A stretch of DNA of 64,000 nt. Source: Escherichia phage vB_EcoM-LTH01. The position numbers and the translations under genes were made by a program. Where the stretch lies: sequence record PP430345; one strand, given 5' to 3'. Numbering within the stretch: position 1 is the first letter of the stretch; each line of letters opens with the position of its first letter. The notes below the pieces were generated by a model. It had not been told where the DNA came from and ran no database searches. It saw only the letters and a list, made by a program, of their open reading frames with translations. Positions 41,733-43,590 of this stretch are shown piece by piece.

Positions 41733-42040
41733 CTTATCCTACGGTCACACAAGTCTGACCATCTATCTCTGAGCAAGGGATTTCAAAATGTCTCCCGTCC
41801 CCAAATACATCTCGCCACATAGTCTATTCGGAAGCGGGAGTCTATGCACACCCCTTGCGGTAAGTGACCTCACTTTGAGATCAGCATCTTCCTTATTCGA
41901 CGAGTTAAATTCTCTTTAAGGTAGCCAGTGTTCGCAGCACTAACTATGAGGTATCCGTAAGATGATTTCAGTCATCTACCGAAAAATTACACCAAGCAAC
42001 TACCTTAAAGAGAACTTCTTAGTAAAGGCCCTTGCGAGCC
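41733..42040 (-). ncRNA. candidate structured stable RNA(s) inside the tRNA operon (~300 nt, ORF-free)
   Basis: No ORF. A 15-bp perfect long-range helix (41910-41924 / 42000-42014) encloses two hairpins. Further hairpins lie at about 41742-41759, 41856-41873 and 42025-42042. Confidence 0.35.
41910..42014 (-). repeat. 15-bp perfect inverted repeat (TTCTCTTTAAGGTAG / CTACCTTAAAGAGAA) separated by 75 nt
   Basis: Read directly from the sequence. The loop contains AGATGA-CTGAAA-TCATCT and AGTG-CTGCGAA-CACT hairpins (minus-strand sense). Confidence 0.8.
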
Positions 42041-42042
42041 TT
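42025..42042 (-). terminator. strand-specific hairpin with GCAA tetraloop at the ORF stop
   Basis: Minus strand reads AAGGCUC-GCAA-GGGCCUU (7 bp, one G.U). The same position is a C.A mismatch on the plus strand. No U-run, so it is likely a processing or stability element. Confidence 0.45.
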
Positions 42043-42415
42043 AATCTTCACCTTCTGCCATTTTATACTCACGAATCTGAGTAGTTAATGGAATAGCATC
42101 TTTAAATGCATCAGAAGGGCCTTGATGAGTTTCTGAATTTGCAGAAGTAGTTCCTCCTGCCAGATCCTCTTCATTATCTTCCATTGTGTACAGATTGTTT
42201 GCCTTTTCAGCTTGCTCAAGAATATACTTCGCAGTAGTTTCTTTAACTTTCTCTGTACCGGAAGTCAGTAGACCTTCCAGAGTTTTAATTGCTTGAGGAG
42301 TAAGTCTTGCAAACTCGGAACGAGCATGAAGAATTGCTCTCTCAGTATTGATTGCAATGCTTTCCTCTGTAGTAGGCCGACCGCGTTTTCGAGTAACGAT
42401 TTCAGCTTTAGCCAT
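42041..42415 (-). CDS. putative DNA-binding protein embedded in the tRNA operon (124 aa)
   Basis: ATG 42415 lies 6 nt after GAGG. N-terminus MAKAEIVTRKRGRPTTEE carries an AT-hook-like GRP followed by helical HTH-like segments. It resembles small-terminase N-termini, but this is unproven. Confidence 0.5.
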   Translation of the reverse strand: MAKAEIVTRKRGRPTTEESIAINTERAILHARSEFARLTPQAIKTLEGLLTSGTEKVKETTAKYILEQAEKANNLYTMEDNEEDLAGGTTSANSETHQGPSDAFKDAIPLTTQIREYKMAEGED

Positions 42416-42442
42416 AAACACCTCAATTCAGTCGATATAACT

Positions 42443-42471
42443 ATATTAGCAGTATAATAGGATTATGTCAA
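42443..42471 (-). promoter_or_regulatory. sigma70-type promoter internal to the tRNA operon
   Basis: Minus strand reads TTGACA (42471-42466), 17-nt spacer, TAATAT (42448-42443). Confidence 0.6.
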
Positions 42472-42607
42472 GAACTTATTGAAATGTATTAAGAAATGAA
42501 ATGGGGGTGCGCCGTTTCTGCTGTAATCTACGTCGTTATCGTTGAGGGAACTCGTAGTCAGGGAACATCAGTCCGACGACTTATCGGGAGCGACCCGACT
42601 TCTTATG
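42472..42607 (-). ncRNA. ORF-free spacer RNA downstream of tRNA-Met
   Basis: Contains hairpin CGGG-TCGCT-CCCG and direct repeats AAGTCG x2 and GTTCCCT x2 (minus sense). No T-loop motif. Confidence 0.2.
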
Positions 42608-42682
42608 TGGTGGCCCTGGGTGGAATCGAACCACCGTCTGGCGATTATGAGTCGCTTGCTTGAACCGTCCAGCTACAGGGCC
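42608..42682 (-). tRNA. tRNA-Met (anticodon CAU; could instead be an Ile2-type), CCA encoded
   Basis: Acceptor GGCCCTG/CAGGGCC, anticodon arm AGCGA-CTCATAA-TCGCC (A.C at positions 27-43), T arm GGTGG-TTCGATT-CCACC. Confidence 0.85.
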
Positions 42683-42698
42683 TGTATTTAAAAGAACT

Positions 42699-42784
42699 TA
42701 GCGCGGGAGGAAGGACTCGAACCTTCATACTCCAATTACTCGATTAACGACGGTTTAGAAGACCGTTGAGATACACCCGCGCTA
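42699..42784 (-). tRNA. tRNA-like element: UCU anticodon loop, long variable arm, no D arm, no encoded CCA
   Basis: 9-bp terminal stem TAGCGCGGG/CCCGCGCTA. T arm GAAGG-TTCGAGT-CCTTC. Anticodon arm ACGGT-CTTCTAA-ACCGT begins only 9 nt after the acceptor. A 23-nt variable region carries the hairpin TTAAT-CGAGTA-ATTGG. Confidence 0.45.
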
Positions 42785-42786
42785 AA

Positions 42787-43093
42787 TTCTCTTGTGGGTG
42801 GTGACAGGTTTTGGATATTTAACGACAGGATAACCTTAAACCTCGTCATCATGACAAGGGGTACACCGTAAAAGATTGTCGTGGTATTAAAACTATAATG
42901 ATCCGTGGATCACTAATCAGACGATCTTCGACGGCTCCCCGATATACACAGGGATGGACTGGGCATCCCATTTAGTCGCAGTCAACCAAAAGCGTAAATC
43001 GCGGCGGTGGTATATTGGTTCCAACATATATTTATCCACCCAGCCTTCAAGATGACTAATCTCTCAGGCAACAAAATAATCTTACATATTTAA
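42787..43093 (-). ncRNA. candidate structured RNA / long leader upstream of the tRNA-like element (~300 nt, ORF-free)
   Basis: Hairpins at 42841-42859 (7 bp), 42899-42912, 42951-42969 (GGGATG/CATCCC) and 43006-43040 (GGTGG..CCACC composite). Confidence 0.3.
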
Positions 43094-43267
43094 TCAGCTA
43101 TTGTCAACAGGTTTTTTACCATTAATGCAGAGATTACACATCACTGATCTCTTTGGTCCTAAAAACCTGTAACCGCAAACAAAACACTGACAAGTGTAGC
43201 CTTTTTGTTTTTCATGGTTGCGAGGATCATCGAAACTTAGAGATTCAAAGGTCTGGTCTTTCATCAT
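43094..43267 (-). CDS. small zinc-ribbon protein (57 aa)
   Basis: CQCFVCG..CNLC forms two CxxC pairs. ATG 43267 overlaps the stop of a 23-codon upstream mini-ORF (ATGA). Confidence 0.5.
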   Translation of the reverse strand: MMKDQTFESLSFDDPRNHEKQKGYTCQCFVCGYRFLGPKRSVMCNLCINGKKPVDNS

Positions 43268-43335
43268 ACATCCCAATTCTCCTCGTTAATAATTCCTTCT
43301 CCGAATCCTACGAAACCATCAAATTCGTCTTTCAT
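43264..43335 (-). CDS. possible 23-aa mini-ORF (MKDEFDGFVGFGEGIINEENWDV)
   Basis: ATG 43335. Its TGA overlaps the next ATG. Too short to support strongly. Confidence 0.2.
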   Translation of the reverse strand: MKDEFDGFVGFGEGIINEENWDV

Positions 43336-43371
43336 TAACCTTCTCCGTATCCAATCATGTATCTTCTCCTA

Positions 43372-43590
43372 TTACAGTTTAACAACACTAACGCTAAAGC
43401 CAGGTATGGTTTTACACTCAGCTTCCATAGATTCAAGAGTCCCTTCAACAAGTTCTTTTTCTACAGCTTCGAAAATCTCTTCGATGCTCAAGCCGGACTT
43501 TTCCATCTTAGCTTTTAACATCTCTTCCATATCTTCGTTAGTGTAGTCAATTTCATAAGTAACCTTGAGTTCTACAACCTGTTTAGTCAT
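43372..43590 (-). CDS. hypothetical acidic protein (72 aa), paralogue of 43583..43807
   Basis: ORF track. Shares the pattern ..(V/F)T(Y/V)(E/D)..TNE....EM...(K/S)(E/M)..G(L/I)(S/T)(I/V)EE(I/L)(F/Y).. with its neighbour. Confidence 0.6.
   Translation of the reverse strand: MTKQVVELKVTYEIDYTNEDMEEMLKAKMEKSGLSIEEIFEAVEKELVEGTLESMEAECKTIPGFSVSVVKL

Follow-up and report, generated by a model that had tools for sequence, protein, structure and literature searches.

M1, an 83-nt irregular hairpin RNA at positions 42858-42940 (minus strand) of the window, by which we mean the whole 64,000-nt stretch of DNA that was analyzed, is common to this phage and to T4 and represents an RNA family that we have not found described. 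M1 works as a folded sense-strand RNA, in which the stems vary while keeping their pairing and the bulge, the large internal loop, a C·U mismatch and two G·U pairs stay fixed. The module is part of a unit whose order is promoter, leader, M1, a second module (M2), tRNA-like element, tRNA-Met and a homolog of the T4 small stable RNA rnaD. The source is a Vequintavirinae-like E. coli phage, its nearest records being A5-4, A73, W70, UPEC06 and A7_1 (94-95% identity over 42400-43400), and all features of the segment lie on the minus strand.

A preliminary description of positions 42787-43093, made from the letters alone, had regarded them as an ORF-free and hairpin-dense segment, and this was right in spirit, since there is structured, conserved, non-coding RNA around the tRNAs; it was wrong on the promoter and on a neighboring spacer, to which we return below. 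The overlapping ORFs are all 40 aa or shorter, and homologs are separated by 2-nt insertions and deletions, so that neither the segment nor M1 is coding. Conservation of the leader, M1 and, where present, M2 among relatives is 91-100%, which is above that of the flanking ORF. The predicted 292-nt transcript (43072-42781) folds better than 200 of 200 shuffled sequences (z -3.28), and because its complementary strand also folds beyond shuffles (z -3.24), folding energy cannot tell which strand is relevant. On the minus strand from 42400 to 43300 no intrinsic terminator (GC-rich hairpin followed by a U run) was found, and no tRNA was recognized inside 42787-43093 by ARAGORN or at the gathering threshold of the Rfam model RF00005.

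Four hairpins had been proposed within the segment, and all of them are present on the minus strand and fold individually: 42841-42859 at -8.9 kcal/mol (z -4.0), 42899-42912 at -3.8 kcal/mol (z -3.6), 42951-42969 at -6.9 kcal/mol (z -2.2) and 43006-43040 at -9.5 kcal/mol (z -1.8). As a set, however, they are not equivalent. Hairpin 42899-42912 is the tip of P3, the apical helix of M1, and the hairpins at 43006-43040 and 42951-42969 belong to the leader, while 42841-42859 bridges the junction between M1 and M2. As a conserved element the last has to be given up: a 60-nt deletion in A73 and W70 destroys it, insertions of ~4, 48-56 or 150-160 nt interrupt it in T4-like phages, and it competes with pairings that covariation supports. 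It is directly followed by UUUAAGG.

The structure of M1 was obtained from covariation, RNAalifold, single-sequence folds and a covariance model (R1). At its base, P0 (4 bp, GRGG/CCYC) is followed by a 1x3 internal loop with A opposite GUA; the middle part consists of P1 (5 bp, with an invariant G·U), an invariant C·U mismatch and P2 (8-10 bp, with another invariant G·U); and at the top an asymmetric internal loop (UGAU opposite UAGUUUUAAnACCnC) leads to P3, 8 bp closed by a tetraloop. Comparative analysis, which had been proposed as a check on the segment, supports both M1 (10-12 compensatory pairs) and M2 (3). When the hand-derived M1 structure was imposed on an alignment (A2) of 29 distinct sequences from T4-like phages, the window group, Kuravirus and Nieuwekanaalvirus, 98.2% of cells were paired and 10 pairs had changed on both sides, compared with 0 of 500 shuffles as good and 24-61% pairing in slid controls. 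RNAalifold independently arrived at the same fold and added the basal helix P0, with 12 compensatory pairs, and a reading of the per-pair counts gives at least about a dozen independent pair changes. In P1, for example, Kuravirus has U-A for C-G and the RB51 group has A-U for G-C; in P3, U-A has become C-G in Kuravirus and, separately, in the F2 group; and in P0, A-U has become G-C. Single-sequence folds of the window, T4 and Kuravirus M1 return the same hairpin, and R1 recognizes one copy in the window at 94.1 bits, the next match reaching 13.8 bits.

Across all pair cells of M1 there are ~88 G·U against ~7 A·C combinations, and the G·U pairs 11-86 and 17-80 are invariant in 29/29 sequences, which together mean that the pairing holds on the sense strand only. 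Besides the two G·U pairs, little or no variation is seen in the C·U mismatch, in the bulged A facing GUA or in most of the internal loop (CUGAUUA ... UAUAGUUUUA ... CC.C); the unpaired nucleotides of M1 are more conserved than its stems. Several familiar motifs were considered for these conserved nucleotides and rejected. For a hammerhead ribozyme, the near-invariant junction CUGAUUA ... UAUAG is not the CUGAUGA/GAAA core, and no Rfam ribozyme model matches; for a kink-turn in the internal loop, the G·A pairs are unconserved (AAUACC in the window, AAGACC in T4, AUUGCC in Kuravirus); and the likeness of CUGAUUA and GUUUUAA to anticodon loops is numerology, since these are not 7-nt hairpin loops.

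Positions 42806-42946, which contain both M1 and M2, are ~80-87% identical to unannotated DNA in ~800 phage records. In T4, RB51, JS98 and Gelderlandvirus UTK0003 the matching DNA is the rIII-30.9 intergenic gap, oriented like its neighboring genes, and in Kuravirus 172-1 and its relatives M1 lies between gene 6 and the terminase gene; M1 also matches Nieuwekanaalvirus, upstream of the terminase gene. The element starts 5-9 nt past the stop codon in JS98-type T4-like phages and Kuravirus, and in T4 itself a hairpin intervenes, leaving ~30 nt between stop codon and element. In both T4 and Kuravirus it stands inside an operon with no promoter of its own, and it is single-copy in each genome. Three lineages, teqskov, UTK0003 and KBNP1711, have suffered separate internal deletions that removed P2 and P3 and left P0 and P1 with a short loop.

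The borders of the modules are given by natural presence and absence. Kuravirus 172-1 and phiEco32 differ by a clean 92-nt presence or absence of M1, from CAGGGAGC to GUAGUGGA, with GGA microhomology (GGAAA / GGAGA) at the borders and no target-site duplications. A73 and W70 retain the M1 core and have lost the next 60 nt, M2 included, and the T4-like insertions of ~4, 48-56 and 150-160 nt fall exactly at the M1/M2 junction, after CUUGAAUGU. Taken together, these three kinds of difference make M1 (42940-42858) and M2 (42852-42806) separable.

The distribution of M1 appears to follow Escherichia-like hosts. R1 found no M1 in the rIII-30.9 loci of Klebsiella and Serratia T4-like phages, in phiEco32 or in the tRNA region of T4 (at most 13.2 bits across T4 60-80 kb). 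BLAST of E. coli genomes and plasmids gave no match, so M1 is not a recognizable copy of a host RNA. A pattern scan of bacterial genomes returned 42 matches, all attributable to chance and none recognized by nhmmer or R1, and scans of IMG/VR and metagenomes returned almost only T4-like phages and one Nieuwekanaalvirus contig, one further match being a false positive. Rfam 15, which had been suggested as the place to look, recognizes no family here: a narrow covariance search (E <= 10) of the window segment gave chance-level hits to SNORD27, Hrs1 and mcrA (E 3.4-3.7), and M1, M2 and a third module (M3, below) at the T4, JS98 and Kuravirus loci had no match. Likewise, literature searches, exact sequence strings included, found no description of M1 or M2 (the 10,006 candidates of PMC10690425 lay outside the comparison), and a T4 transcriptome paper (PMC9697503) does not mention the rIII-30.9 locus.

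M2 (42806-42852, minus strand) is a hairpin with the stem GAUGAC-G-AGG / CCU-GUCGUU, whose loop (..GGUUAU) and tail UAAAUAUCCAAAACCU are conserved. Its pairing was kept in 92% of cells of a 12-sequence alignment (A4) that includes Klebsiella and Serratia T4-like phages, with 3 pairs changed on both sides and slid controls at 17-63%. In the Klebsiella and Serratia sequences the stem has been largely replaced and the loop GGUUAUC and the tail are kept. Although the minimum-free-energy fold of the window prefers the hairpin 42841-42859 over the competing M2 stem, the comparative evidence favors the M2 stem. Outside the window group, M2 occurs in T4-like phages only and is absent from Kuraviruses. 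Inspection of the hexamers and their spacing does not fit M2 to a T4 early, middle or late promoter, and an AUGAUG mini-ORF or leader peptide starting in M2 was also rejected, for its frame and length change among T4, RB51, JS98, Klebsiella phages and the window.

Further RNA structures were seen at the same locus in T4-like phages. JS98-type phages carry, between M1 and M2, a ~135-nt conserved RNA (M3) that has no copy in the window; it is found at the rIII-30.9 locus of Klebsiella, Enterobacter, Serratia and Citrobacter T4-like phages too, in 407 records that are mostly 90-96% identical. Its fold comprises seven helices, three of them crossing (pseudoknots), with 99.6% pairing and 6 compensatory pairs over 7 sequences. 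F2-type T4-like phages have another M2-like hairpin in the ~48-56-nt insertion that parts M1 from M2; its loop repeats the sequence AAAAAGGUUAUC, and this recurrence suggests a hairpin family defined by GGUUAU. In T4T a strong intrinsic terminator follows 30.9 and gives a sub-threshold Rfam match to Atu_C8 (31.4 bits against 50), which is probably mere similarity between terminators.

In the window, M1 and M2 stand behind a promoter-like site. A consensus scan located a sigma-70-type promoter, TTGACA-17-TAAGAT, at 43079-43107 (minus strand, 10/12 matches), overlapping the 5′ edge of the segment and the stop codon of a 60-aa ORF (43094-43276), with a predicted transcription start near 43072. 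The pattern TTGACA-N16-18-TAAGAT occurs at two sites in the 64-kb window (43107-43079 and 44795-44768) against 0.04 expected by chance, and the former is 97-100% identical in A5-4, A73, UPEC06 and A7_1, the overlapping upstream ORF having only 64% nucleotide identity in UPEC06 and A7_1. The preliminary description had seen no convincing promoter and had considered the segment probably co-transcribed from a leftward early promoter at about 44790, which is the other copy of the pattern. The first statement is wrong, and with a site of the same type of its own the segment need not depend on the distant one; transcription would be expected to start here. The 60-aa ORF itself (minus strand) carries two CxxC pairs that give it a zinc-ribbon look, and it diverges around the embedded promoter.

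The leader (42947-43072, minus strand, ~125 nt) matches close relatives only, among which it is 92-98% identical, and its hairpin 43006-43040 shows one compensatory change, U-A to A-U, between phage subgroups. A boxA-like CGCUUUUGG in the leader was dismissed as too weak a match. At the other end, a promoter-like site of the next gene (ORF 42041-42421), TTGACA-17-TAATAT with TG just before the second hexamer (42443-42471, minus strand), marks the downstream limit of the RNA operon. As had been anticipated, the segment lies upstream of the tRNAs on the same strand and therefore would have to be separated from them for the tRNAs to be freed.

Directly downstream of M2 is a tRNA-like element (42702-42780, minus strand) that scores 35.8 bits with the Rfam tRNA model against a gathering threshold of 29 and for which ARAGORN makes no call; it is 99-100% identical in relatives, and megablast of 42400-43400 gave no T4-like match for it. 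It is followed by a tRNA-Met with the anticodon CAU (42608-42682, minus strand), called by ARAGORN and at 60.3 bits by Rfam, whose 92% identity to the tRNA-Met region of T4-like phages indicates a T4-like origin.

The stretch 42472-42607, which had been taken for a 136-nt spacer, is mostly a homolog of T4 rnaD, the species 2 small stable RNA (42506-42606, minus strand). T4 rnaD is annotated at 71053-71171 of AF158101, directly after tRNA-Arg; its nt 10-50 are 92.7% identical to window positions 42597-42558 and its nt 101-119 are 100% identical to 42524-42506, so that 42606-42506 aligns with it end to end apart from a 17-nt apical deletion. The homology at both ends is accompanied by the corresponding placement immediately 3′ of a tRNA, the window copy starting 1-2 nt after tRNA-Met. 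Of the features noticed earlier in the supposed spacer, the hairpin CGGG-UCGCU-CCCG and the repeats AAGTCG and GTTCCCT are present in the sequence, and the hairpin is the one at the 5′ end of rnaD, where a C-G pair has become U-A with the stem preserved; over its full length the spacer shows no unusual degree of structure (z -0.49). Its 5′ part matches 815 phage records, mostly of T4-like phages, at positions consistent with tRNA clusters, although the records were not checked individually. Rfam 15 holds no match for the rnaD-like RNA. This homolog is, to our knowledge, the first outside T4-like phages.

Much of the cassette has T4-like counterparts, M1 and M2 in the rIII-30.9 gap, tRNA-Met and the rnaD-like RNA in the tRNA cluster, and in T4-like genomes these two halves lie ~60 kb apart. 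T4 species 1 (rnaC) and species 2 (rnaD) are non-coding, hairpin-rich RNAs that are co-transcribed with phage tRNAs and released from a precursor, and the predicted operon would make RNAs of this kind. M1 and M2 themselves are dissimilar to these RNAs, with no blastn-short match to rnaC or rnaD, and in T4 they are found ~60 kb away from them, unannotated.

Among the mobile non-coding modules described in T4-type phages, the nearest are the PeSL cassettes, small intergenic modules at recombination junctions that are shuffled among genomes (PMC2839356, PMC4122927). They differ from M1 in every defining feature: PeSLs come in many copies, each a short terminator stem-loop with an early promoter, which in the T4/PST pair reads TTTACW-N17-TAYWAT (PMC4122927), whereas M1 is a single-copy 83-nt hairpin supported by covariation. 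M2 was inspected for the same promoter, and the nearest approach to it there, TTTATG and TATCCA 17 nt apart, departs from the consensus. M1 also resembles the orphan structured-RNA motifs collected by comparative genomics (Weinberg 2017, PMC5737381; Fremin and Kyrpides 2023, PMC10690425), as a conserved intergenic RNA structure that is defined by covariation and has no Rfam 15 match.

The reading of M1 that we favor, tentatively and at somewhat less than an even chance, is that of a processed, protein-binding RNA. Under this reading the operon would be transcribed early from the sigma-70-type promoter and would yield only non-coding RNAs; host enzymes would cut the precursor and free the tRNAs and the rnaD-like RNA, RNase P acting at the tRNA 5′ ends and RNase E in the AU-rich linkers; and M1, with or without M2, would persist as a compact RNA whose invariant unpaired nucleotides could bind a protein. 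Since the module functions in three E. coli phage lineages that have no relation to one another, a host factor is the probable partner. Our preference follows from this portability, from the lack of M1 at the rIII-30.9 locus of Klebsiella and Serratia T4-like phages and, in this phage, from its place among stable RNAs. It is tempered by three considerations. Gel studies of T4 small RNAs in the 1970s reportedly resolved the tRNAs and species 1 and 2, all mapped to the tRNA cluster, and since M1 was not reported among them, an abundant stable M1 RNA in T4 is unlikely; M1 is promoterless and sits just past a stop codon inside the T4 and Kuravirus operons, which a role on its own transcript would fit equally well; and the three lineages without P2 and P3 mean that the conserved apical loops are dispensable at least sometimes.

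Such action of M1 on the RNA that carries it, in processing or in stability, is a less probable but serious alternative. M1 could be a host endoribonuclease site or a barrier to 3′ exonucleases, for example a double-stranded substrate of the RNase III type or an entry site for RNase E at the AG/UUUU internal loop. In this phage its effect would be to set the leader apart from the tRNAs, and in T4 and Kuravirus to fix or shield the mRNA ends of rIII and gp6, respectively. Precedents are the RNase III sites of T7 and the RNase III cleavage of T4 species 1 RNA, and the hairpins of T7-like phages (R1.1 and others) are likewise irregular, intergenic, provided with an internal loop and sense-oriented within polycistronic early transcripts. 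With ~17-21 stacked bp in P0, P1 and P2 and a further 8 in P3, the predicted lower and upper stems would be compatible in length with the roughly two turns of double-stranded RNA that RNase III recognizes; the element is always intergenic on the sense strand, 5-9 nt (JS98-type, Kuravirus) or ~30 nt (T4) past a stop codon, and variants with the basal stem only persist in three lineages. However, RNase III is undemanding as to sequence, whereas M1 conserves its unpaired nucleotides more than its stems; an internal loop of 4 x 16-20 nt greatly exceeds those of T7-type sites in size and asymmetry; and M1 is common to unrelated phage families, and it is not obvious why three such lineages should need to acquire a generic stabilizer. 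A further serious rival, though in our view an unlikely one, is a processive antitermination or anti-Rho RNA whose nascent hairpin would bind E. coli RNA polymerase in the manner of put. The put element of HK022 is a folded nascent RNA of two stem-loops, ~70 nt in total, which acts on host RNA polymerase without phage proteins; it is portable and placed just after a promoter or first gene, and all three phage groups with M1 probably rely on the core of the host RNA polymerase for transcription. The contexts of M1 are suggestive: here it follows the promoter of an RNA operon that is not translated, in T4-like phages it lies within 200-350 nt of untranslated intergenic sequence in an operon, and in Kuravirus it stands ~25 nt before the intrinsic terminator located ahead of the terminase gene. 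In the window, a C-rich, G-poor tract follows M2. Against it, phiEco32 manages the same terminator and terminase arrangement without M1, the window has no predicted intrinsic terminator downstream, and M1 is one hairpin where put has two.

The patchy distribution of M1, the microhomology borders without target-site duplications and the reshuffling of modules among phages might instead betray an element acting at the level of DNA (a single-stranded DNA hairpin such as a signal for priming or recombination) or a selfish or neutral passenger spread by recombination between co-infecting phages. We consider this very unlikely, as three or four helices show compensatory changes and the G·U pairs are invariant, which indicates selection for pairing on one strand, always the transcribed sense strand, and as each genome holds a single copy. 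Scarcely credible is a small protein, for which the 40-aa ORF at 42849-42971 or the AUGAUG mini-ORF would be the candidates: short ORFs do exist, and hypothetical proteins are entered for this stretch in some GenBank records, but the 2-nt indels between homologs shift the frame of the 40-aa ORF, and the mini-ORF varies in frame and length and has no Shine-Dalgarno sequence in view before it.

Returning to the processed, protein-binding RNA, the capture of the M1 module by two unrelated E. coli phage lineages, here within a promoter-driven operon with tRNAs and an rnaD homolog, speaks for a host-linked RNA function that can move between phages. It is a rather speculative and, as we see it, improbable extension that M1, M2 and M3 are exchangeable structured-RNA modules traded by virulent enterobacterial phages, expressed early and acting on a host factor. 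They could act as RNA decoys or inhibitors against a defense system or nuclease specific to hosts like Escherichia, or could modulate RNA polymerase or Rho; if this were true, phages would possess in RNA an equivalent of the small early proteins of host takeover, one that has gone unnoticed in T4. T4 is among the most thoroughly annotated phages, and its rIII-30.9 gap still holds an unannotated RNA structure under clear selection; since the element is present in T4, its function is directly testable by genetics. The rnaD homolog outside the T4 family, for its part, gives comparative leverage on the still unexplained species 2 RNA. A further stretch, 41905-42017 (minus strand) inside the ORF-free region 41733-42040, shares 75-80% identity with unannotated sequence next to tRNA genes of Phapecoctavirus-like (~150 kb) and T5-like (~110 kb) phages, and may be another non-coding module common to unrelated E. 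coli phages.
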